The notes under the pieces were generated by a model. It was not told the DNA's origin. It searched no databases and saw nothing but the letters and a program-made list of their open reading frames with translations. 64,000 nt of DNA from assembly GCA_964573095.1 (NCBI GenBank), contig CAZNIK010000002.1, positions 71,230-135,229 on the forward strand, read 5' to 3'. This DNA comes from an uncultured Candidatus Saccharibacteria bacterium. GTDB taxonomy: Bacteria; Patescibacteriota; Saccharimonadia; Saccharimonadales; 2-12-FULL-41-12. Positions within the stretch are counted from its first letter, which is position 1. The number at the start of each line of letters is the position of its first letter. The position numbers were made by a program, and so were the translations under genes. Positions 4,184 through 15,164 of this stretch are shown here, one piece after another.

Positions 4184-4217
4184 TGAGTTGCTTTTTTTGT
4201 TTCTATTAAAAGTAATC

Positions 4218-5009
4218 CTATTTAATGCAGGGTATATAGTCATAGATTCCAGATGTTGCTGCCCAGGTCTTTCTTTTGCCGCCATTAGATTTTAATGGCA
4301 CTGCAGTTGTGTACTTCATCTGTACAATCTCGTTTCGCAACTCACAGTTTGATTTGGTTCCGTAAAGGGGAAGGGTGGTTGATGCGCTAAAGTTGTTTTT
4401 ACTTGAAAGAGGCAGTTCGCCAATTGGAGTGTTTCTCACCATCTTCGATCTTTCAGACGCTTTGCTTACCGCCCAAACTTTTACCGTTAAGTCACCAAGC
4501 GCTTCGCAGTACGGGTTTTCTTGAAAATCTTCCGATTCTGCCCAGATTTTTACCTTGGTTTTCTGCTTATTAGCAAACCAGATTTTCCTGTGCTGCTGGC
4601 TAGTTTGTAGAGCAATGGCCTGCCCACAATCGATATAAACTTCTTCAGGCACCCCATTGTCAAAATAACCTTCTGGAAACTTACTCAAATCAAAGCTCGA
4701 AAGTAGTGGACGTTTTTTGGTCGTTGCTGGCTTAGTATTTGCGCCTGCAAGGTTAATACCTGTCTGAGGCAGAGTTACCTTTGTTGCAACTTCTCTGGCG
4801 AGGGCTGAATCTGTTCCGAGGGGTCCCTCTGCTCGGTCTGCCATTGCTGCACCGGTGAGTGCCAAGGTGGCACCAGCAATCGCACCGACTTTTCTCGCAG
4901 CATTGTGCAGAGAATTAAATTGTTCGTGCTGCTGAGTAGCTAGTTGTGGTTCAAAATGGGCAATTGGTGATTGCTCTAGTAATTGCATTCTTGGGTCTTG
5001 TTCTGGCAT
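4218..5009 (-). CDS. Exported/anchored hypothetical protein
   Basis: Track ORF, 263 aa. Hydrophobic A/G-rich segment (KVGAIAGATLALTGAAMA) after a roughly 38-aa N-terminal region. Four Cys in the C-terminal domain. GGGAG lies 11 nt upstream of the ATG. Confidence 0.6.
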   Translation of the reverse strand: MPEQDPRMQLLEQSPIAHFEPQLATQQHEQFNSLHNAARKVGAIAGATLALTGAAMADRAEGPLGTDSALAREVATKVTLPQTGINLAGANTKPATTKKRPLLSSFDLSKFPEGYFDNGVPEEVYIDCGQAIALQTSQQHRKIWFANKQKTKVKIWAESEDFQENPYCEALGDLTVKVWAVSKASERSKMVRNTPIGELPLSSKNNFSASTTLPLYGTKSNCELRNEIVQMKYTTAVPLKSNGGKRKTWAATSGIYDYIPCIK

Positions 5010-5104
5010 TTTCTTATGCTCCCTAAATAACTTATGTTATTCACTAAACATAGTTATACCAAATAAATCGACCTCTGTAAATTGCTTATGCTAATAAAAC
5101 CCCA

Positions 5105-5458
5105 AAAACTTCTTAACTACTTCCGACCAACTTTAACTTTTTCCCCACAAAAAATACACCCAACCACCTTTGTTGGGCGAAAACTACTACTTTGCCAGGG
5201 TGGAAATTAGTGCTGGCTTGAGATAGGAAAACTGCAGATACTAACTAGTTGTTTTGTTTAAGAATGTTCACGAACAGCTCGCATATAAAGTTTGGCAAGC
5301 AAAGTTAGTTGGTCACCCCAAGTGTGTTTGCCCTCATCAACCTTCACAGAGATAAAGCTATCTTGACCCTTTAGATCGTAGATGTGTTGCAAGGCAGGTT
5401 CAATACTCTCGGGTTTGGCAATAGATGTATCAGCTCCATAGCCAACAACTAGCCTGCC
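5105..5458. repeat. Direct repeat copy 1 (354 bp): 3' end of the hydrolase gene plus its downstream region
   Basis: Base-by-base comparison with 6450-6803 (offset 1345 bp) gives 352/354 identical. Mismatches are at 5441/6786 and 5446/6791. Confidence 0.95.
5148..5179 (-). terminator. Intrinsic terminator of the hydrolase gene
   Basis: Minus strand reads cgcccaac-aaaggtg-gttgggtg followed by tattttttg: an 8-bp stem with one G-U pair, a 7-nt loop and a T-run. Confidence 0.7.
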
Positions 5459-6298
5459 GACAGTACCCTCTTCAAGTATGTCTAAAACCCGAGATTCAAA
5501 AACATCATTTCCTAGACCTTTATACATTGCTAAGTTAAGCGGGTTTGTTGCCGAGACACCAAAACGTGTAAAGTCCACCAAGCCCAATCCGAGCGCTGTT
5601 TTTTGCGCAGCCAAGCCTGTAGCAGCAACTGCTTTTTTAAGGTCTTTTGCGCCCGCCTTTGAGAAATCTTGTGCTAGCTTTGCGATGCTACGATCTTCGA
5701 CACCTGCTGGATCGCCAGCAGCTACTGCCTCGACGTCTAGGCTGGCTGAATACCCCGACCGAGCACCAGCCAAAGCCATGTCAGCTCCTTGAGAAAAGCC
5801 GAATAATGCAACCCGTCCAACTTCTTTTTCGGTCACTGCATGCAGTAATTCTCTAGCAGCCGGTCCAAGTTCGCCCGCCTTTAGCGCTTCCCGCTCTACC
5901 TTGGTTAAGTTAAGTGAACTTCCTCCAATGCCTGGACTTGCGAGCATGATAACTGGCTTCAGCTTACCTTCCGCATCGCAGACTGCTGTCTGTTTTGCTA
6001 CCTCCCGAACAAACTCTGCACGCACCAACATATTCGGCGTCGCAGCATTTGCAAATGGATTAAAGATAACCAGAGCGTCTGTCGTCGAATATTCACTAGG
6101 GTTGTCACCCTTTAGCACCGCGAAGGCAACGCCATTTTCTGAATGCTCAACACTCTGCTTAAGGGTGTCGATAAGTTGTTTAGGGTCCTTTTGATTTAGT
6201 TCGTGAAGCGCCCGCTCAAATGGCTCTTCGAGATCAGAACCAGGAAGCCATACTTCCGTTGGGACTATAGTTGCTGTAGATGCTTCTGGGTTATTCAT
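5258..6298 (-). CDS. Alpha/beta-hydrolase-fold protein (putative serine hydrolase)
   Basis: Track ORF, 346 aa. Nucleophile-elbow GxSxG (FGFSQGADMALAG) and a C-terminal His (GKHTWGD). No signal peptide. Similar layout to the 18566-19708 product. Confidence 0.7.
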   Translation of the reverse strand: MNNPEASTATIVPTEVWLPGSDLEEPFERALHELNQKDPKQLIDTLKQSVEHSENGVAFAVLKGDNPSEYSTTDALVIFNPFANAATPNMLVRAEFVREVAKQTAVCDAEGKLKPVIMLASPGIGGSSLNLTKVEREALKAGELGPAARELLHAVTEKEVGRVALFGFSQGADMALAGARSGYSASLDVEAVAAGDPAGVEDRSIAKLAQDFSKAGAKDLKKAVAATGLAAQKTALGLGLVDFTRFGVSATNPLNLAMYKGLGNDVFESRVLDILEEGTVGRLVVGYGADTSIAKPESIEPALQHIYDLKGQDSFISVKVDEGKHTWGDQLTLLAKLYMRAVREHS

Positions 6299-6339
6299 GA
6301 TTAGTTTTAGCTACTTCAAGTGGTGGTTTTACTTGACTA

Positions 6340-6368
6340 ACAATAGCACAAGTTGTGCTATTTTGCAA
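6340..6368 (-). promoter_or_regulatory. Putative hydrolase promoter TTGCAA-17-TATTGT with a 9-bp perfect palindrome in the spacer
   Basis: -35 ttgcaa at 6363-6368 and -10 tattgt at 6340-6345 (minus strand). Palindrome AATAGCACA-agt-TGTGCTATT at 6342-6362. Confidence 0.4.
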
Positions 6369-6492
6369 GTATTTGTTCCACGTTCTTTGGTGTTCCGTGC
6401 AACTTCGCGTCATTTGCGGCCAGGGTTTTATTTATGTTCAGAGTATTACAAAACTTCTTAACTACTTCCGACCAACTTTAACTTTTTCCCCA

Positions 6493-6524
6493 CAAAAAAT
6501 ACACCCAACCACCTTTGTTGGGCG
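6493..6524 (-). terminator. Duplicated copy of the hydrolase terminator
   Basis: Identical to 5148-5179, inside repeat copy 2. Confidence 0.6.
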
Positions 6525-6602
6525 AAAACTACTACTTTGCCAGGGTGGAAATTAGTGCTGGCTTGAGATAGGAAAACTGCAGATACTAACTAGTTGTTTT
6601 GT

Positions 6603-6803
6603 TTAAGAATGTTCACGAACAGCTCGCATATAAAGTTTGGCAAGCAAAGTTAGTTGGTCACCCCAAGTGTGTTTGCCCTCATCAACCTTCACAGAGATAA
6701 AGCTATCTTGACCCTTTAGATCGTAGATGTGTTGCAAGGCAGGTTCAATACTCTCGGGTTTGGCAATAGATGTATCAGCTCCATAACCAATAACTAGCCT
6801 GCC
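6603..6803 (-). pseudogene. 3'-terminal fragment (last 67 codons) of the alpha/beta-hydrolase gene
   Basis: Track ORF 6603-6809 translates to ...GRLVIGYGADTSIAKPESIEPALQHIYDLKGQDSFISVKVDEGKHTWGDQLTLLAKLYMRAVREHS. This is identical to the C-terminus of 5258-6298 except for V to I. It has no N-terminal 280 aa and no GxSxG. Confidence 0.85.
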
Positions 6804-6839
6804 TTGCAATTTTTATCAACAATTAAATGTACATGAGGA

Positions 6840-6845
6840 TATAAT
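6840..6845 (+). promoter_or_regulatory. Perfect TATAAT -10 box 6 nt upstream of the hicB-like ATG (leaderless layout)
   Basis: tataat at 6840-6845, atattc, then ATG at 6852. No convincing -35. Confidence 0.4.
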
Positions 6846-6851
6846 ATATTC

Positions 6852-7058
6852 ATGAAAAATCAATATTTTAATGCTGTTATCACAGAAGAAGATGGTGAAT
6901 ACGTTGCCCTTAACCCGGATACAGGAATTGCAAGTCAAGGAAAAGATGTTAATGAATCACTGGCCAACCTTCGAGAAGCTTTACTGCTATATTTTGAAGA
7001 AGTTGGAAGCACTGAAAACCTTTCGCACCAATCCTTCCTAACGACCTCTACTCTTTAA
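6852..7058 (+). CDS. hicB: HicB-family (UPF0150-type) antitoxin-like protein, no intact HicA partner
   Basis: 68 aa. AVITEEDGEYVALNPDTGIASQGKDVNESLANLREALLLYFEE matches the short HicB N-terminal domain pattern (xVIEKDEDGxYVAxxPDLPGCxTQGxTxEEAxxNxxEAIxLYLE). Confidence 0.75.
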   Translation: MKNQYFNAVITEEDGEYVALNPDTGIASQGKDVNESLANLREALLLYFEEVGSTENLSHQSFLTTSTL

Positions 7059-7111
7059 GATCTATGCCAATAAGCGGTAGACACTAAAGATTTGGGATTA
7101 TAAACAGAGTT

Positions 7112-7153
7112 TTGCCTTAAAGTTACTCTAAGGGTATACTTATAGAGTAACTT
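7112..7153 (+). promoter_or_regulatory. phd-doc promoter TTGCCT-17-TATACT, bracketed by an 11-bp perfect inverted repeat (probable Phd/Doc operator)
   Basis: -35 at 7112-7117 and -10 at 7135-7140. Inverted repeat aagttactcta (7120-7130) and tagagtaactt (7143-7153) flanks the -10. Confidence 0.5.
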
Positions 7154-7168
7154 GACAGGAATAACACT

Positions 7169-7384
7169 ATGACAATTATCGGTTTGAAAGAACTACGACA
7201 AAATGCGACTGAAATCGCAGAACGCGCCCAGAAAGGCGAAAGGTTTACAGTGGTAAAGCGGTCAAAGCCTGTATTTACTATTTCGCCCCCGGAAGAGGCT
7301 TCTGATTTAGAAGCCACAAAAATATGGGCAGATAACTACATTAAAGAGAATAAACCCCTACTCAATTCGCTTTCTAAAAAATGA
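7169..7384 (+). CDS. phd: Phd/YefM-family antitoxin
   Basis: 71 aa. MTIIGLKELRQNATEIAERAQKGERFTVVKRSKPVFTISP is the typical Phd/YefM N-terminus. ATGA overlap with doc. Confidence 0.8.
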   Translation: MTIIGLKELRQNATEIAERAQKGERFTVVKRSKPVFTISPPEEASDLEATKIWADNYIKENKPLLNSLSKK

Positions 7385-7779
7385 GTTTAGCAAAAATAGA
7401 CGTGGATGAGATCATGCTCATTCACGATGCAATTATTGATACAACTGGGGGAAGTAAGGGCGTGCGAGAAGCTGGCTTGCTTGAGTCAATCTGTAAAACC
7501 CCCTTTGGTAACTATTTTGGACAAGAACTTTATCCAGACCTTTTTCTAAAGGCGGCCGTTATAATGAACTCTCTTATAAATTTTCATGTTTTTTTGGATG
7601 GAAACAAGCGCACCGCCATAGCTGTTATGGAGTATTTTCTATTTAAAAACGGCTACGAATTTACTAAATCAGAGGTAGAAAAAGAAAAATTTGTCCTTTC
7701 TGCTGCGACCACCAACCCGGATTTGGCGGACATATCTCAGTGGATAAAAAAGAATGCCAGGAAGAAGGGCGGCAAATGA
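7381..7779 (+). CDS. doc: Doc toxin (Fic-fold kinase, death-on-curing family)
   Basis: 132 aa. Fic/Doc motif HVFLDGNKRTA (HxFxDGNKR). Confidence 0.9.
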   Translation: MSLAKIDVDEIMLIHDAIIDTTGGSKGVREAGLLESICKTPFGNYFGQELYPDLFLKAAVIMNSLINFHVFLDGNKRTAIAVMEYFLFKNGYEFTKSEVEKEKFVLSAATTNPDLADISQWIKKNARKKGGK

Positions 7780-8855
7780 GTCTTTCGATTGCCATTGTTG
7801 GGCTGCCGAACGTCGGTAAGTCTACCCTTTTTAACGCGTTGACCGATAACAACATTCTCGCCGCCAATTATCCGTTTGCAACCATTGAGCCAAATACTGG
7901 TGTCGTACCAATTCCCGACGGTCGACTGTTTGCACTCCAAAAAATCTATAACGCCAAAAAAGTTGTGCCTGCAACAGTTACCTTTGTCGATGTTGCTGGC
8001 TTGGTTGCCGGTGCCAGCCAGGGCGAGGGCTTGGGCAACCAGTTTTTGAGTCATATCCGAACCACCAACGCCATTTGCCAAGTCGTGCGGACATTTCACG
8101 ACGATGACGTGGTGCATGTAGAAAACCAAACGAACCCACTAAAAGATATTGAGGTGGTCAACACCGAACTGGTGCTGGCCGATCTTCAAACTGTTGAAAA
8201 ATGGTTGCCCAAATTAGAAAAAGAAGCCCGGGCCAACCCAAAACTTCGCCTTGTTGTGGACCATCTGCAAAAAATCCACCGCAGCCTTGACCAAGGTGTT
8301 CCCTTGTCAAAAAATCCAGAGCTGCTGGACGATGAACTGATTGCAGACTTACAACTGCTAACTGCAAAACCAGTGATGTATTTGTTTAATGTCGACGAGG
8401 AAACGCTCGGTAATAAAGATCGCCAGGCAGAATTGTCAAAGCTGGTGGCCCCCAACCAAGCCTTGTTTGTGTGTGCCAAGTTAGAAAATGAGCTGAAAGA
8501 TTTAGCCGAATCTGACCGTCATGAGTTGCTCGAGAGTTACGGGGTTCAACGGTCTGGCCTGGACCAAGTTGTTCATTCGGCGTACGACATCTTGGGCTTG
8601 CAAAGTTATCTCACGGCGGGAGAAAAAGAAGTGCGGGCCTGGACCATACCAAAAGGCGCCACGGCACCGCAAGCAGCGGGAGTAATCCATAGCGACTTTG
8701 AGCGAGGATTTATCTCGGCTCAAATTATGAACTACGACGATCTTGTGGCGGCTGGTTCTGAGGCGGCTGCCAAGTCGCAGGGCAAAGTCCGTACCGAAGG
8801 AAAAACCTACGTCATGCAACCGGGAGACGTTGTCGAGTTTCGTTTTAACACATAG
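7776..8855 (+). CDS. ychF: Ribosome-binding ATPase YchF (Obg-family)
   Basis: MSLSIAIVGLPNVGKSTLFNALT P-loop and a full-length YchF-like sequence. The track start at 7740 adds 12 non-conserved residues. ATG 7776 overlaps the doc TGA (ATGA). Confidence 0.95.
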   Translation: MSLSIAIVGLPNVGKSTLFNALTDNNILAANYPFATIEPNTGVVPIPDGRLFALQKIYNAKKVVPATVTFVDVAGLVAGASQGEGLGNQFLSHIRTTNAICQVVRTFHDDDVVHVENQTNPLKDIEVVNTELVLADLQTVEKWLPKLEKEARANPKLRLVVDHLQKIHRSLDQGVPLSKNPELLDDELIADLQLLTAKPVMYLFNVDEETLGNKDRQAELSKLVAPNQALFVCAKLENELKDLAESDRHELLESYGVQRSGLDQVVHSAYDILGLQSYLTAGEKEVRAWTIPKGATAPQAAGVIHSDFERGFISAQIMNYDDLVAAGSEAAAKSQGKVRTEGKTYVMQPGDVVEFRFNT

Positions 8856-8893
8856 GACTTTTCCACTTTTCCGAAAATATGAGCAATATTTAC

Positions 8894-8923
8894 TTGACAT
8901 TCTCAAGTATTTTTCGCTACACT
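8894..8923 (+). promoter_or_regulatory. Promoter TTGACA-18-TACACT, 10 nt before the ABC ATPase ATG (near-leaderless)
   Basis: ttgaca at 8894-8899, tacact at 8918-8923, ATG at 8934. No SD in between. Confidence 0.5.
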
Positions 8924-8933
8924 TTTTAGATAA

Positions 8934-9686
8934 ATGTCCGCGCTGAAAGTAAATAAACTCGCCAAAACCTACCCTTCGGGAACCAAGGCCCTCAAAGGCA
9001 TTGATCTTAACATTGCCGATGGGTCATTTTTTGGCTTGCTCGGACCAAATGGTGCTGGAAAGTCTACGTTGATCCACTGTATTATGGGGCTCGCCCTTCC
9101 CACCGCTGGAAAAGCTGAAGTTTTTGGGCACGACGTGGTAAAAGATTATCGACAAGCCCGCGCCACCGTCGGCCTCGCCCCTCAAGAAATTAATCTGGAT
9201 TGGTTTTTGACCGTCGAGGAAACGCTGGATTACCACGGCGGCTACTATGGCATGCCAAAAAAGCAACGCCGGGAGCGAATAGAGGAGCTGCTCGAGACTT
9301 TTTCTTTGACCGACAAACGAAAAGTGAATAGCCGACTGCTCTCTGGTGGCATGAAGCGCCGGGTTATTTTGGCACGGGCCATGATGCACCGACCAAAAAT
9401 GCTTATCTTGGACGAACCAACTGCCGGTGTCGACGTCGAGCTCCGACTAGAACTTTGGCAATACATGAAAAAGGTCAACCAAGAAGGCACAACCATACTT
9501 TTGACCACCCACTACATTGAAGAGGCCGAACAGCTTTGTGATAATTTGGCGCTTATTAACAATGGCAAAATCATCAAAACCGGAACCAGCGACGACCTAA
9601 AAAAGACCTACAAGAAGAAAACTCTCGAAGACGTGTACTTGCACCTCATTGGCCGTGACGAACTGACAAGGAGTGTCGAGGTATGA
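8934..9686 (+). CDS. ABC transporter ATP-binding protein (ABC-2/DrrA-like)
   Basis: Walker A GPNGAGKST, signature LSGGMKRR, Walker B LILDEPTAGVD. Confidence 0.9.
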   Translation: MSALKVNKLAKTYPSGTKALKGIDLNIADGSFFGLLGPNGAGKSTLIHCIMGLALPTAGKAEVFGHDVVKDYRQARATVGLAPQEINLDWFLTVEETLDYHGGYYGMPKKQRRERIEELLETFSLTDKRKVNSRLLSGGMKRRVILARAMMHRPKMLILDEPTAGVDVELRLELWQYMKKVNQEGTTILLTTHYIEEAEQLCDNLALINNGKIIKTGTSDDLKKTYKKKTLEDVYLHLIGRDELTRSVEV

Positions 9687-10471
9687 TGAAAGAAATGACC
9701 CGCAAACAGTCATGGATGGGTTTTTGGACGGTACTGCGCCGAGAAATGACTCGTTTTTGGATAATTAAGCGTCAAACCATTCTTGGTCCCTTGCTCGAAA
9801 CCTACCTATATATCAGCGTGTTTGGGGCGGCACTTGGCAGTCGGATAAAAGAGTTGGATGGCTATAGCTACATTATTTTTATTATTCCTGGCCTGCTGAT
9901 GATGACGTTTGCGATTAATATGTTTTCTAACAATGCATCGTCTTTGATGCAACAAAAAATTCAGCGCGCCATCGATGACCAGCTGGCTTCGCCCGTCTCG
10001 AACAGCCAACTTCTGGGCGCATTTGCACTGGGAGGATTTATTCGAGCATCGCTGATTGTAGCAATTACCTATACAACTGCGTGGATCCTGATTGACGATT
10101 TACCAATGGTTCACCCCTGGTTATTTCTGCTCAGCATGGGCCTTATTGGGTTGTTCTTTTCGATGGCGGGTGTGTTGGTTGGCTTGCGCTCAGAAAAGTT
10201 TGACGACCTCAGTTTTTATCAGACATTTGTGCTGCAACCACTGATATTTTTGGGCGGAATTTTTTACTCGGCTTCCTTGCTGCCCGAACCATTCCATACG
10301 CTGATACAAATAAATCCCTTGTACTACATGATCAATACGGTTCGCTACGCCATGCTCGGCAGCGCAGACGTTCAGCCACTGATTTCACTTAGCGCGGTCG
10401 GGATTGCCGGGCTAATTTTGCTTGCAATCAACTACAAGCTCTTTAACCGCGGCTACAAACTACGAGTTTAA
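9683..10471 (+). CDS. ABC-2 type transporter permease
   Basis: 262 aa with about 6 hydrophobic helices. ATGA-coupled to the ATPase gene. Confidence 0.8.
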   Translation: MMKEMTRKQSWMGFWTVLRREMTRFWIIKRQTILGPLLETYLYISVFGAALGSRIKELDGYSYIIFIIPGLLMMTFAINMFSNNASSLMQQKIQRAIDDQLASPVSNSQLLGAFALGGFIRASLIVAITYTTAWILIDDLPMVHPWLFLLSMGLIGLFFSMAGVLVGLRSEKFDDLSFYQTFVLQPLIFLGGIFYSASLLPEPFHTLIQINPLYYMINTVRYAMLGSADVQPLISLSAVGIAGLILLAINYKLFNRGYKLRV

Positions 10472-11430
10472 GGCAGTAAAGCTTGATCGACCGTGTGCGC
10501 AACGCTGGCAACGTCGCTCCAGCTAGCGTTTTCACTCATGATGACCACGACGTATTTCGCCGAGTTGTGCGTCACCACCGCCACGTCGTGTTTCACCGGA
10601 CCATCTTCGCCAGTTTTGTTTCCAACCAAACATTCTTCGCCGCAACCCGTCGGTATGCCCATCCGAAGTTTTTGGCCATACAGGCCGTCAAAGATCAGAC
10701 GACGAGCCTTGTCGCTGAGAATCTGGGCATTCTGAAGTCGGTAGATTAGATCGCCAACTTCGCGAGCAGTGGTTTGTTGGGCCGAGCTGCCGATCTTGGT
10801 TTTTGTAAACCCAACGTTTTGGTTATATTTGTCGATATATTGCCAACCAACGTAGTTTCCGACCGCTTCTCCGCAAAGGTTGTCAGAAACTCGTATCATG
10901 GCCGTCACGCAGTCGTTAATAGTGTGGGCTCCTAGGCGACTGTTCCAGTTTTTGGCTGGTAGTTTGTTTTCTAGCGGTGGTAGCAAAAATAATTTGTAGA
11001 GGCTGGCGGACTGCATTCGGTCGTCGGCATTAATGCTGACCATTCTCTCGGAATTTAAGTCACGAATAAACACCGACCATTTTTGATTTTTGGGCATTGA
11101 TTTTAGCTGTGATTGGACAAATCGAGACATCGACTCGTCTTCTCGGGCTTGTTTTGGTGCTTGCACAAGGTTGGTCTGCTCCGATAGCTGCTCTTTTTGA
11201 GTAATTGCTGACCCTAGTCCATCAGTTCGTTGCAAAGGTGACGCGTTGAGTTTTTGGTACACACCAAAAGCCCCGGCGGAAACAATACACACCGCCAGGA
11301 AACCACGAGCTACAGCCAGCAGGCTGGGGCGCCGCTTGGCATACACCACGCCTGCTGAGTGTTGATAATATCGAATGCGTGGGCCAATTGCGCCACGATT
11401 TTTAGTTTTCATTTTTATCTCACAAAGCAA
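10468..11430 (-). CDS. Membrane-anchored serine hydrolase, class-A beta-lactamase/PBP-like fold
   Basis: SxxK (SLYK), SDN (RVSDNLC) and KTG (GNKTGED) motifs in the correct order. N-terminal TM helix. The start may be ATG 11412. Confidence 0.7.
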   Translation of the reverse strand: MLCEIKMKTKNRGAIGPRIRYYQHSAGVVYAKRRPSLLAVARGFLAVCIVSAGAFGVYQKLNASPLQRTDGLGSAITQKEQLSEQTNLVQAPKQAREDESMSRFVQSQLKSMPKNQKWSVFIRDLNSERMVSINADDRMQSASLYKLFLLPPLENKLPAKNWNSRLGAHTINDCVTAMIRVSDNLCGEAVGNYVGWQYIDKYNQNVGFTKTKIGSSAQQTTAREVGDLIYRLQNAQILSDKARRLIFDGLYGQKLRMGIPTGCGEECLVGNKTGEDGPVKHDVAVVTHNSAKYVVVIMSENASWSDVASVAHTVDQALLP

Positions 11431-11587
11431 CCCGCTTTTTTGCGAATCGGCTTATTTTATTTTTGGTAAGTCTTTTTGGCTTTTTGCGTGTCTCTACCTA
11501 AAAACCTATCACAGACAAAGCATACTTTGCAAGAAGTTTTTTATGTATACAAACTTATTTGATTGAATTGATTATTTTTGTGCGAAG

Positions 11588-12238
11588 CTACCAGCTGTAT
11601 ACAATATTTTTCATAATCTCCACCACTGTTTTGTGGTCTGGAATTGTATTGTCATCATAATAATGGTCGGTCCCAAAATAATTCTCTAAAATTGATAAAC
11701 AAAATATTTGATCAGCCAGAATATGCATGCGGTCGGTTGCAGCAATGCTGGCAAGTGGCGTCGCGACGACGATTTTGCGAACCGCAATAGGCTTTAAATA
11801 GTCTGCGGCCACGTCGAGCGACATACCCGTCCCTAGCCCATCAGACACCAAAATCACGGCGTGCCGCTTGAGTAGAGCGCGTTTTATTTCGCCATCTTTA
11901 CCAATAATGCGGTTAATCTTTTGGAAGGCTTCCAAACTCGCCTGGTCAATAACAGAGTGATAGTCCGTCTTAAAGCTCTCGAGTTGACCGGGAGATAAAT
12001 GTGATCCATAGGTTAAGCCTTGGGTGCTCATGGTTGCGATCGGCGAGGGGTCTTCTGGAATTCGAATATCTTCGGTGGCCAGTAAAAAAAGTGCGCTATG
12101 AAGCTGTTTGGCGATTTCTGCGCCAACTACTACTGCGCCTTCGTTGAGTGCCAAGACCACATTGTTTTCCTTGGCCAGCTCGGTCATTTTTTCTGCCAGC
12201 AATGCCCCGGCCTGCGTTCGGTCTTTAAAATACTGCAT
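11588..12238 (-). CDS. Predicted phosphoribosyltransferase
   Basis: 216 aa. PRPP-binding type motif VILVSDGLGTGMS. Confidence 0.7.
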   Translation of the reverse strand: MQYFKDRTQAGALLAEKMTELAKENNVVLALNEGAVVVGAEIAKQLHSALFLLATEDIRIPEDPSPIATMSTQGLTYGSHLSPGQLESFKTDYHSVIDQASLEAFQKINRIIGKDGEIKRALLKRHAVILVSDGLGTGMSLDVAADYLKPIAVRKIVVATPLASIAATDRMHILADQIFCLSILENYFGTDHYYDDNTIPDHKTVVEIMKNIVYSW

Positions 12239-12253
12239 GAGTTTCTAAAACCA

Positions 12254-12262
12254 AGTGTAGCA
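12254..12262 (-). promoter_or_regulatory. Extended -10 element TGcTACACT, 15 nt upstream of the phosphoribosyltransferase ATG
   Basis: Minus strand reads tgctacact. It lies just downstream of the tlyA stop. No SD. Confidence 0.35.
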
Positions 12263-12273
12263 AACCCCCGCCG

Positions 12274-12993
12274 TTATTTGAGCAAAGTGAGTACATAGAA
12301 CCGCTCGGTGTTTCCTTTTTCTCCAGATACTTTGCTGTCGGCTTTGTCACGAATTTTGTAAATATCTTTTACCCAGGCCTCGAACTCCTTAAACACCGCT
12401 CGACGAAGTGACTCATTTTTGATCACTCCCTTGTGTTTGGTCTGCTCGCCAACTTCAAACTGGGGTTTTACCATCGCCACCACAACCGTCTGAACAGAGA
12501 TAAGTTCCGGGAGATGACGCAGAATTTCTCTAATACTAATAAAAGACACGTCGATAAGCACCACATCGACAGGTGCCGAGGTGTGCTTGACCTCACGGAT
12601 ATCAGTTTGTTCATGGAGCTCAATGCGTAAGTCTGATCGCAGCGTTGGGTGTAATTGATTGGTACCGACATCGACGGCAATCACCTTCTTTGCCCCGTTT
12701 AGAAGCGCAAACTGAGTAAAGCCTCCTGTGCTGCTGCCCACATCGAGTACGGTTTTGTCGGTAAAATCCAAGCGCAAGCTATCTGCCACCGACGCCAGCT
12801 TGAGCCCGGCCCGCGATACATACTGGGTCGCGACGTCTACACGAATTTCTGCCTGCGGCTGCACAAAAATACCCGGCTTGGTCGCCACTTGTCCATTAAG
12901 TCTTACTTTTCCGAGGCGAACATAACTTTCGGCCTGGCTACGCGTGCGAACCAACCCGCGCTGCACCATTAACGCATCGAGCCGAGCTTTCAT
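12274..12993 (-). CDS. tlyA: TlyA-family 16S/23S rRNA (cytidine-2'-O)-methyltransferase
   Basis: S4-like N-terminus (MKARLDALMVQRGLVRTRSQAESYVRLGKVRLNG) and SAM motif VLDVGSSTGGFT. The track start at 13041 overlaps efp, so ATG 12993 is preferred. Confidence 0.85.
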   Translation of the reverse strand: MKARLDALMVQRGLVRTRSQAESYVRLGKVRLNGQVATKPGIFVQPQAEIRVDVATQYVSRAGLKLASVADSLRLDFTDKTVLDVGSSTGGFTQFALLNGAKKVIAVDVGTNQLHPTLRSDLRIELHEQTDIREVKHTSAPVDVVLIDVSFISIREILRHLPELISVQTVVVAMVKPQFEVGEQTKHKGVIKNESLRRAVFKEFEAWVKDIYKIRDKADSKVSGEKGNTERFYVLTLLK

Positions 12994-12997
12994 TGAC

Positions 12998-13564
12998 CTA
13001 ATCCTTTTTGCGTTCACGATACGCACCCGTCGTCGTATCAACGCTTATCACATCGCCAGTTTTAATAAAAGCTGGCACTTTGACAATTGCCCCCGTTTCT
13101 AAAGTTGCGTCCTTGGTAATCGAGGAGCTGGTGTCGCCCTTGACGGCATCTTCGGCATACGTCACCTCGAGATAGACATTTTTGGGCAGTTCAACGTTAA
13201 TAATTTGGTTGTTAAAGATTTGAACTTGAACTCTATCGCCATCCCTCAGATATGCGTGTTGATCGCCAACAATCTCCTCGGCCACCTCGTGCTGCTCAAA
13301 ATTTTCTTCGTTCATAAAGTAAAAAGTCGAACCCTCACGATACAAATACTGGGCGTTGGCATTGGTCACGTCAGCCGAGTCTAGTTGATCATTGCCCTTA
13401 AAAGTTTTGTCGAGCACCCGACCGTCAATAAGGCTTTTGATCTTCACGTTGACGATTGAACCGCCACGCCCCATAACCTTTTGACCATATTCAATTACTC
13501 GATATGGCGTGCCTTCGAGTTGAAAGATGGTACCTTTTTTTAGTTCGGTAATAGAAAATGCCAT
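12998..13564 (-). CDS. efp: Elongation factor P
   Basis: MAFSITELKKGTIFQLEGTPYRVIEYGQKVMGRGGS... aligns gap-free to E. coli EF-P. The track start at 13618 adds 18 residues. Confidence 0.95.
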   Translation of the reverse strand: MAFSITELKKGTIFQLEGTPYRVIEYGQKVMGRGGSIVNVKIKSLIDGRVLDKTFKGNDQLDSADVTNANAQYLYREGSTFYFMNEENFEQHEVAEEIVGDQHAYLRDGDRVQVQIFNNQIINVELPKNVYLEVTYAEDAVKGDTSSSITKDATLETGAIVKVPAFIKTGDVISVDTTTGAYRERKKD

Positions 13565-13572
13565 AAAAAAAT

Positions 13573-13890
13573 TTAGTAAGGATAAAACTCTCGGACCTTC
13601 CCGCTTAGTTCTATACAATCTTTCATGAACCTGTCAGTGTGCCGGAAATCCATAATTTGGTCGCCATGACCGCGAATTTGACCCAACGCACCCATAACAC
13701 CTTGAATTCTTTGCTCGATGTTGATCCTGTGTCGCTTTACCTTGACATCAGTCACCAACTGCTCAATTTCTTTGAGCAACTGCCGACCATAAGGGTGCTG
13801 GGCATCATCAATCAGATCGTGAATGTGATCTCTCAATCTGTCGACACGCTGGACAATCTCCAAATGATCCTTGCTCATCGTACTTACCAT
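13573..13890 (-). CDS. Hypothetical helical protein
   Basis: Track ORF, 105 aa. Sits in an operon position between rpsR and efp. No motif recognised. Confidence 0.5.
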   Translation of the reverse strand: MVSTMSKDHLEIVQRVDRLRDHIHDLIDDAQHPYGRQLLKEIEQLVTDVKVKRHRINIEQRIQGVMGALGQIRGHGDQIMDFRHTDRFMKDCIELSGKVREFYPY

Positions 13891-13934
13891 GTTAGTACCA
13901 AAGTGATGAAATGAAAACTTTCTCGGTGGTAGGC

Positions 13935-14138
13935 TTAGTTGTGCGCCACGAACGGCAACAGTGCGAGATGTCGCGCTCGCTTGATCGCTCGCGCGAGTCG
14001 CTTTTGCTCCGTCTCGCTTAGGCCGGTTTTTTTTCTGGTCTCGATTTGTCCATATTGATTGACGTAGCGCTGCAAGGTTTTTACGTCCTTGTAGTCAAAA
14101 TACGGTACATCGATTCGGTGCTTAAAAATTTTTGCCAT
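13935..14138 (-). CDS. rpsR: 30S ribosomal protein S18
   Basis: 67 aa. ...[42 protein letters not shown]. Confidence 0.95.
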
Positions 14139-14223
14139 AAATTTCGGTTTACTCCATTAGTTAATTATTATTCAAGTCCTCACGCTCGTTTGGAATATCA
14201 AACAAGCTGTAGACTTATTTTTA

Positions 14224-14682
14224 CTAAAACGGGATGTCATCAAGGTTGATTGGTTCGTCGCCAATGTCTTCGACCACAACGTCTTTTTTCTTTTTTGTGC
14301 TTTTTGTCGGTTCAACGTCAGCTTGAGCTGAACTAGAACTATCGGTCTCGCCTCGGCTGCCCAAAAATGTAACATCTTGAGCGTTTACTTCGACTTTGCT
14401 TCTTTTTTGACCATCTTGTTCCCATGAACGACTCTGCAGGCGACCGCTAACCAACACTGGTCGGCCTTTTGTAACATACTGTGCTACTCGTTCACCAAGT
14501 GGCCCCCACGCAACAACATCAATGTAGTCAACCGCCTCTTGCCACTCACCGTCACTGCCTTTGTAGCTTCGGTTGAGTGCAAGACTAAACGTACATACAC
14601 TTTGTCCACTTGGAATTTGTCGTAACTCTGGGTCTCTCGTAAGATTGCCCATGAGTATTACTTGATTAAAGCTTCGTGCCAT
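14224..14682 (-). CDS. ssb: Single-stranded DNA-binding protein
   Basis: OB-fold N-terminus (NQVILMGNLTRDPELR) and acidic C-terminal tip DDIPF. Confidence 0.95.
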   Translation of the reverse strand: MARSFNQVILMGNLTRDPELRQIPSGQSVCTFSLALNRSYKGSDGEWQEAVDYIDVVAWGPLGERVAQYVTKGRPVLVSGRLQSRSWEQDGQKRSKVEVNAQDVTFLGSRGETDSSSSAQADVEPTKSTKKKKDVVVEDIGDEPINLDDIPF

Positions 14683-14704
14683 TGTAGTAATCCCCTCTTA
14701 ATTC

Positions 14705-15082
14705 TTACTCTTCTTCAGTTGCTTCATCTGATTTTTCACCCCTCACCGCCGCCTTTTTGGCCTTTTCTTCACGAATAGCTTCGGCCTTGGCAATTGCTTT
14801 TAGATCTGGTCGGCTGACAAGATAACGTATAACCTCGTCAGTGATATTTAGTGTTGTCTCCACTTTTTTTACTGCCTCTGGCGGCAATTCTGCCGTATAA
14901 AAAACATAGACCGCGTAGTCGTGCTTTTGAATCTGATAAGCCAGCTTCTTTTTGCCCCAATTATCAGTCTTAAGGACCTTGCCACCATTATCTTTGATGA
15001 TTTTGTCGATTTTTTTTGAAACTTTTTCCAGATCTGCTTCCGAGTCTGGATGGAAAAGTATTGCTACTTCATATTGATTCAA
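14705..15082 (-). CDS. rpsF: 30S ribosomal protein S6
   Basis: MNQYEVAILFHPD... with an acidic C-terminal tail. Canonical rpsF-ssb-rpsR order. Confidence 0.9.
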   Translation of the reverse strand: MNQYEVAILFHPDSEADLEKVSKKIDKIIKDNGGKVLKTDNWGKKKLAYQIQKHDYAVYVFYTAELPPEAVKKVETTLNITDEVIRYLVSRPDLKAIAKAEAIREEKAKKAAVRGEKSDEATEEE

Positions 15083-15164
15083 AGAATCCTCCTTTGGTTA
15101 CTGCCCATACGCTGTCGTGCCAGTCTTTTGGCACCGCTATGAACTGAGTTATTAGTGGTGCCTA

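Follow-up and report, generated by a model that had tools for sequence, protein, structure and literature searches.

The stretch of DNA analysed here, hereafter the window, comprises 64,000 nucleotides (nt) from an uncultured Candidatus Saccharibacteria bacterium (assembly GCA_964573095.1, contig CAZNIK010000002.1, positions 71,230 to 135,229) and harbours a gene for a protein of the alpha/beta-hydrolase fold whose 3' part is present twice. The intact hydrolase gene lies on the minus strand (5258..6298) and has 346 codons. Its end is located in repeat copy A (5105..5458), which contains codons 281-346 and the stop codon together with 153 nt of downstream DNA including a predicted terminator, and repeat copy A' (6450..6803) is an orphan 3' fragment of the same gene with its own copy of this terminator. 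Both copies enclose the unique segment B (5459..6449), comprising on the minus strand hydrolase codons 1-280 and the promoter along with the 85 nt that precede its -35 box. A and B hold the complete hydrolase transcription unit, i.e. promoter, open reading frame (ORF) and terminator, and form a unit of 1345 nt that is missing from the deletion allele described below. The island in the window has the order L - A - B - A' - hicB (with a hicA remnant) - phd - doc - ychF, where L denotes the left flank.

A and A' match at 352 of 354 positions, with an offset of 1345 nt and an abrupt end of the identity on both sides; they disagree only at 5441 (G) versus 6786 (A) and at 5446 (C) versus 6791 (T). 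The coordinates, the identity, the offset and the positions of the mismatches, first reported by a sequence-only reading of the locus, were reproduced here, and a self-BLAST of the whole 64-kb window is in agreement with them, revealing A/A' as the sole repeat at E<1e-6. Given that no second repeat was seen in the window, a chance origin of the identity is excluded. The earlier assignment of the last 67 codons of the gene to each copy has to be corrected to 66 codons and the stop codon, the repeat beginning at codon 281; the approximately 150 bp of downstream DNA with a terminator assigned to each copy agree with the 153 nt, hairpin and T-run found.

The terminator-like hairpin with its T-run is located on the minus strand at 5147..5179 behind the intact gene and, in identical form, at 6492..6524 in A'. 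It has an 8-bp stem with 5 G-C pairs followed by TATTTTTTGT, and folds with -22 kcal/mol (z = -3.3). A G+C-rich hairpin and a U-run just 3' of the gene, as present here, point to an intrinsic terminator. The copy in A' is placed between the cassette promoter region and the conserved hydrolase promoter, so that the earlier statement of a terminator upstream of this promoter holds for the position of the predicted element. A' also contains an ORF of 68 codons (6603..6809, minus strand), composed of TTG-CAA from the cassette side and the 66 duplicated codons; it does not encode the serine nucleophile, and its product is presumably non-functional. A promoter-like site (TTAAAA-17-TATATT, 6843-6871, minus strand) is directed into this fragment ORF, and, if it is active, the duplicated terminator (6524-6492) would end the transcript ahead of the hydrolase promoter.

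The designation of the gene product as an alpha/beta-hydrolase, also proposed by the earlier reading, is supported at the level of the fold, i.e. an alpha/beta core, a GxSxG elbow and a C-terminal catalytic His, because the AlphaFold2 model built from 21 aligned sequences matches solved alpha/beta hydrolases. This model has a predicted local distance difference test score (pLDDT) of 88.5, and Foldseek returned a probability of 1.00 and E ~1e-8 against esterases, HsaD and haloperoxidases. In Pfam, nothing reached the threshold, the best match being Abhydrolase_2 with E = 0.073 and 13 bits (cut-off 23) over the GFSQG elbow, and a PDB profile search yielded no match below E = 0.36 and a few esterase matches at E = 0.9. 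GFSQG is the nucleophile elbow with S169 and is nearly invariant in the alignment. S169 and D196, both nearly invariant, are encoded by the unique part of the gene and the invariant H325 by the repeated part; the fragment alone can therefore not be an enzyme. Approximately 90 homologues of the hydrolase were found, and the few with an organism name belong to Saccharimonadales or Saccharibacteria; these names and the gene context place the window in a Saccharimonadales genome. The hydrolase promoter (6340..6368, minus strand, TTGCAA-17-TGcTATTGT) has hexamers that are conserved in the contigs L003 and L004 of two relatives (about 72% amino acid (aa) identity of the hydrolase); since they are kept in both, segment B carries the promoter belonging to the gene. 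A perfect palindrome, AATAGCACAA-G-TTGTGCTATT (6342-6362), occupies the spacer of this promoter and overlaps its -10 box. It looks like an operator, and its conservation in L003/L004 is not obvious.

Assemblies with and without the hydrolase gene

The arrangement A-B-A' was encountered in further contigs, labelled here with L and a number. L014 (JGI (Joint Genome Institute) 3300045398, 11.5 kb, 98.1% identity to the window) has the order ychF-doc-phd-hicB-fragment-hydrolase-next gene and its own 354-nt repeat pair, with junctions as in the window. L015 unites on one contig 75 nt of A', the joint 6449|6450, B, A and L, and L016 and L017 are continuous from B across the entire A into L. The Logan contig L001 corresponds exactly to window 5105-6479 with a 30-nt terminal overlap, i.e. 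to the 1345-nt unit closed on itself, which is how an assembly graph with k=31 renders a repeat-bracketed loop. The novel joint 6449|6450, connecting promoter-upstream DNA to the start of A, is thus found in L001, L014 and L015.

Furthermore, breaks located precisely at the repeat borders occur in contigs of at least eight other datasets, with L002, L008, L010/L020, L011, L013/L025, L022, L024 and L026 ending k-1 or k nt from the border or from the first distinguishing single nucleotide polymorphism (SNP). L011 and L013 end 30 nt and L010 141 nt into A, L008 and L025 at 6450, and L024 and L026 at their own first distinguishing sites; L002 and L022 begin at 6756, 30 nt ahead of the first A'-specific SNP, and L020 begins 141 nt ahead of it. 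Because the graph branch at 5105 has no other source, the B|A' joint is present in the reads of several datasets. As far as assemblies can show, the A-B-A' architecture is a real allele that is not confined to a single lineage of the species, and the contigs running B-A-L argue for a chromosomal arrangement. A mis-assembled second copy, a concern that accompanied the first description of the repeat, is countered at the assembly level by L014, L015 and the breaks at the borders. A possible third junction in L028 (a JGI 3300045377 contig of 1448 nt) was discarded as chimeric. Here, 404 nt of G+C-rich foreign DNA are joined near window 6442, followed by B and, attached via a 9-nt inverted repeat (CTCGGGTTT / AAACCCGAG), by a segment in inverted orientation; the contig is probably an assembly or amplification artefact.

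Six contigs (L005, L006, L007, L009, L012 and L018) read L-A'-hicB and lack B. Three of them, L005, L009 and L012, are identical to the window (100%) except for the missing 1345 nt, L006 and L007 are of the deletion type with 98.4% identity and an intact hicA, and L018 is a deletion-type contig of an L014-like lineage with the four L014-type SNPs. The deletion allele equals the window minus exactly 1345 nt, namely B and one repeat copy, carries the A' alleles at 5441 and 5446, and is the product expected of homologous recombination between A and A'. Its presence on three lineage backgrounds, each with its own lineage markers, fits recurrent deletion or exchange by recombination.

Comparing the locus between related genomes, as had been proposed earlier, revealed the same A-B-A' in L014, the deletion allele in other contigs, and no fragment in L003 and L004. 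In these two relatives, ychF and the hydrolase gene are divergent neighbours without toxin-antitoxin genes in between, and searches for a fragment found no second hydrolase piece; this layout is taken as the ancestral state. Among the GTDB representative genomes, neither the hydrolase protein nor the 30-nt B|A' junction had a match. The JGI metagenome collection, which does not hold the samples considered here, likewise gave no match to the protein or to the 30-nt pattern 6420-6449, a pattern that L014 carries.

Probable exchange between the repeat copies and possible origin of the fragment

A and A' differ at two positions within the window and at two within L014, compared with five to seven differences between lineages. 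Four SNPs at third codon positions (5327, 5336, 5345 and 5351), all synonymous, are shared by both L014 copies and absent from the two copies of the window lineage. The four within-genome differences (5441 and 5446 in the window, 5124 and 5457 in L014) all lie within 20 nt of a border, for which a uniform distribution gives an expectation of (40/354)^4, i.e. approximately 2e-4. This clustering at the borders fits conversion because conversion tracts need homology on both sides. Similarity that is higher within than between genomes and lineage-specific SNPs common to both copies are the marks of gene conversion, and the alignments suggest that it has acted here. Non-reciprocal exchange, either gene conversion or unequal sister exchange, would keep the interiors of the copies identical, with the sole exception of positions less than about 20 nt away from a border. 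Codon 285 encodes Val in most orthologues and in the intact gene of the window, and Ile in the fragment of the window and in the intact gene of L014; A' of L024 again carries the Val allele. Since both alleles occur in both types of copies, this site moves between them, and the two A/A' differences in the window are not clearly a simple decay of the fragment.

Beyond the repeats, the divergence between the window and L014 over 7800-15100 is mosaic, with 4-5% over 8000-9700, zero over 9800-11000 and patches thereafter, and the contigs of GCA_041907465.1 agree completely with the window (100%) to the left of the repeat (L010) but only to 98.4% to its right (L020). This mosaic divergence suggests frequent homologous exchange within the species.

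We propose that recombination between the 354-nt direct repeats recurrently deletes the hydrolase gene and generates the deletion allele, and that DNA uptake from gene-bearing cells may restore the gene in deletion strains by an ordinary double crossover, so that the population would hold a presence/absence polymorphism of the hydrolase. Tandem duplication and collapse between direct repeats is a RecA-dependent process in Salmonella and E. coli. The locus resembles this process in that a gene is bracketed by direct repeats of a few hundred nt, both states are polymorphic in the population, and the precise deletion allele keeps one hybrid repeat copy. Two features set it apart from the situation in these two organisms. 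Its second copy is reduced to a 354-nt stub that stops at a toxin-antitoxin cassette, and the arrangement is not transient but maintained in different lineages. Concerted evolution by gene conversion is known for tufA/tufB, for rRNA operons and for the conversion of genes by pseudogenes. As in tufA/tufB and the rRNA operons, the copies within one genome are closer to each other than orthologues are, and residual differences are found at the edges of homology. In contrast to tufA/tufB, a gene is paired here with a non-functional fragment over a very short tract, and the comparison is based on metagenome assemblies and not on phased genomes. Since Saccharibacteria have been reported to be naturally competent (PMC10633639), re-acquisition of the hydrolase gene is feasible.

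With respect to the origin of the structure, two illegitimate joints are needed, 6449|5105 and codon 281|cassette, in either order. In the order that we slightly prefer, on a thin basis, a hicBA cassette would have truncated the single-copy hydrolase gene, replacing codons 1-280 and the upstream DNA and giving rise to a deletion-type allele. In a second step, the segment consisting of A' and the toxin-antitoxin genes would have been attached next to an intact gene, ychF/phd providing a homologous anchor on one side. Homology-facilitated illegitimate recombination is known from naturally transformable Acinetobacter and Streptococcus pneumoniae. By the same principle, the ychF/phd anchor and the illegitimate joint 6449|6450 would have brought in the cassette along with a piece left over from the gene previously next to it; natural competence is reported for the host group as well (PMC10633639), and the mechanism is put forward here as a proposal. 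The account as a whole, namely repeat-mediated loss, homogenisation of the copies and an origin in two events, is in our judgement likely.

It is also conceivable that the 1345-nt unit was first duplicated completely in tandem and that hicBA then replaced codons 1-280 and the promoter of the second copy, every deletion-type allele being a later collapse. No second lineage would then be involved in any step, the insertion would be neutral owing to redundancy, the offset is as long as the unit, and the deletion alleles are exactly the predicted product of a collapse. However, full tandem duplications are unstable, so that the second hit must have come fast, no contig with two full copies was seen, and the only contigs with an intact hicA, and thus with the ancestral cassette, L006 and L007, are of the deletion type. 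Because full tandem duplications are short-lived and all hicA-intact contigs are deletion-type, we favour the cassette-first order and regard a preceding duplication as possible and rather unlikely. A double template switch in an ancestor of the order L-A-B-hicBA-phd, going back from 6449 to 5105, copying A and moving forward to 6804, would explain in a single event why A' lies exactly between B and the cassette. It seems very unlikely to us, as all deletion alleles would need to be secondary and no 6449|6804 junction is present in the 10 places shown of 21 contigs bearing the hicB-like gene. Even less credit is given to a history along the lines of the sequence-only reading, with a recent partial tandem duplication of 5105-6449, private to one strain and with a second copy truncated afterwards. 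The offset of 1345 nt, the identity of 99.4% and the abrupt borders look young, but the same junctions exist in many datasets and in a lineage diverged by about 2%, and this lineage has four SNPs of its own in both copies. For the latter reason, the high identity of A and A' does not date the event; homogenisation is the better explanation of the near-identity, and the qualifier "recent" is left unsupported. L014 and L015 partly contradict such a history, and their identity of 98% argues against the same physical strain having been sampled again; a recent spread of one allele by recombination may still have taken place. What stands of the description as a partial tandem duplication or recombination scar is the scar, with its A-B-A' order and the end-to-start joint 6449|6450. 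The second copy ends after 354 of 1345 nt instead of being complete, and a second illegitimate event, the insertion of hicBA, is also needed, which is why the structure is not a simple tandem duplication.

Several points weigh against the proposed account. The linkage L-A-B-A' with the toxin-antitoxin genes rests on assemblers and not on reads, and the assembly graph is the same for A-B-A' and for a deletion chromosome accompanied by the 1345-nt unit as a circle or a tandem multimer. Repeat interiors can be collapsed in short-read assembly, in which case the copies would look identical except close to the borders. With regard to this, three of the four sites of the synonymous cluster are within 127 nt of the right border and should be linked to the unique flank at the largest k, and L020 ties a window-type A' interior to the cassette (k = 141); the k values of 127 for L014 and 141 for L020 are inferred from contig ends. 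Neither a strain of the species that bears the hydrolase gene and no cassette nor the ancestral sequence to the right of 6449 was found among the sequences searched, and the lack of such a strain leaves the origin scenario without direct support. The presence/absence change may have gone towards loss or towards gain of the gene, and the markers of L018 fit either direction. Taken to its extreme, the graph argument would make A-B-A' an assembly artefact in which a deletion-type chromosome and a separate hydrolase-bearing molecule or strain were threaded into one path, in line with the identical graphs of both situations, the closed 1345-nt loop of L001 and the deletion contigs at 100% identity. 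Nevertheless, the B|A' joint is required in the reads of several datasets (branches at 5105 in L008, L010, L011, L013 and L025), the path B-A-L of L014-L017 would not exist under a circle plus deletion, and a non-replicating 1.3-kb circle at chromosome-like abundance across many samples is implausible. Of all the readings considered, we deem this artefact the least probable.

Toxin-antitoxin genes between L and ychF

The DNA on the right of A' is the promoter end of a toxin-antitoxin cassette of the compact hicB-hicA type (6804..7107, plus strand), which truncates A'. The boundary at 6803/6804 had been recognised before as the point where unrelated AT-rich DNA cuts the second copy off, and it does; the identity of this DNA as a hicB/hicA cassette had been missed, as had the deletion allele in other samples. 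The cassette contains, besides its promoter, a hicB-like gene (DUF7387; 6852-7058) and a 40-nt remnant of hicA (7064-7103). In L006/L007 hicA is intact (69 aa), and approximately 165-170 nt of it are deleted in the window, where the HicB-like gene is an orphan antitoxin after the loss of hicA. The adjacent phd-doc module (7108..7779, plus strand) comprises phd (PF02604; 7169-7384) and doc (PF02661; 7381-7779), both intact and overlapping; their adjacency and family assignment are those of a predicted type II toxin-antitoxin system. It is followed by ychF (7776..8855, plus strand), the conserved right flank of the variable island. The stop codon of doc overlaps the start of ychF (ATGA, 7776-7779), and in L029 the stop codon of phd overlaps the ychF start likewise (7001-7004), doc being missing. 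Thus, ychF seems to be transcriptionally coupled to whichever toxin-antitoxin gene precedes it.

L029, a contig of a metagenome-assembled genome with 82-86% nucleotide identity, retains L to about window 5098, followed by relB-yafQ, by phd (83% identical to window 7108-7386) and directly by ychF, and has no hydrolase gene, doc or hicB. A relB-like antitoxin and a YafQ/ParE-like toxin gene (6065-6604 of L029) take the place of the hydrolase gene. Given that hicA is intact or deleted depending on the strain and that L029 carries relB-yafQ, the stretch from L to ychF is a hot spot of toxin-antitoxin turnover, and phd upstream of ychF predates the species. In L029, the left block ceases to be homologous some 6 nt short of the repeat A border. 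This proximity was not taken to indicate a site-specific hot spot at 5099-5105, since within the roughly 70 nt of usable spacer two breakpoints would fall that close together by chance in approximately 1 in 6 cases. Similar to the chromosomal type II toxin-antitoxin islands of hicAB, phd-doc and relBE type, the locus consists of compact modules with their own promoters and decayed toxins, and its content differs between relatives, with Pfam-level matches to Phd, Doc/Fic, DUF7387 (HicB-like), HicA, RelB and YafQ. No integrase, attC site or transposase was visible alongside the cassettes. A target-site duplication by a transposon or insertion sequence was rejected because repeats of 354 nt are far too long and 4200-8900 contains no transposase ORF.

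On the left side, the conserved flank L carries a gene for a 263-aa protein (4218..5009, minus strand), which adjoins the single repeat copy in the deletion allele. No Pfam family matches this protein, and its length ranges from 238 to 270 aa among strains. The N-terminal part of the gene (4800-5009, minus strand) differs from L014 by approximately 37 SNPs per 200 nt, and the alignment is lost further in; the DNA beside it differs by only about 1%. Diversifying selection or the replacement of a gene segment could account for this divergence.

Relevance for Saccharibacteria

One may ask whether the orphan fragment and the addiction module together constitute a primitive variation system, which we consider unlikely. 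If this were true, the phd-doc and hic cassettes would be costly to lose, and the hydrolase gene would be gained or lost only beside them via the repeat, resulting in a population-level on/off switch for an enzyme that is encoded beside a hypervariable protein gene and type IV pilus genes. Moreover, gene conversion would transfer sequence variants from the silent fragment to the expressed gene, Val/Ile at codon 285 being an example.

The phenomena described here are all of known kinds and need no new mechanism, so that the locus is ordinary in this respect. A literature search on such structures in Saccharibacteria found nothing specific, and the novelty lies in the well-supported occurrence in a bacterium of the candidate phyla radiation (CPR). 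The locus, supported by several datasets, illustrates homologous recombination in nature for an uncultivated member of the CPR and displays repeat-mediated gene loss, homogenisation of repeats and turnover of toxin-antitoxin cassettes in one place. The polymorphism flags the hydrolase as dispensable or conditionally useful, and the locus could be used as a marker for recombination and for the dynamics of gene presence and absence in populations of Saccharibacteria.

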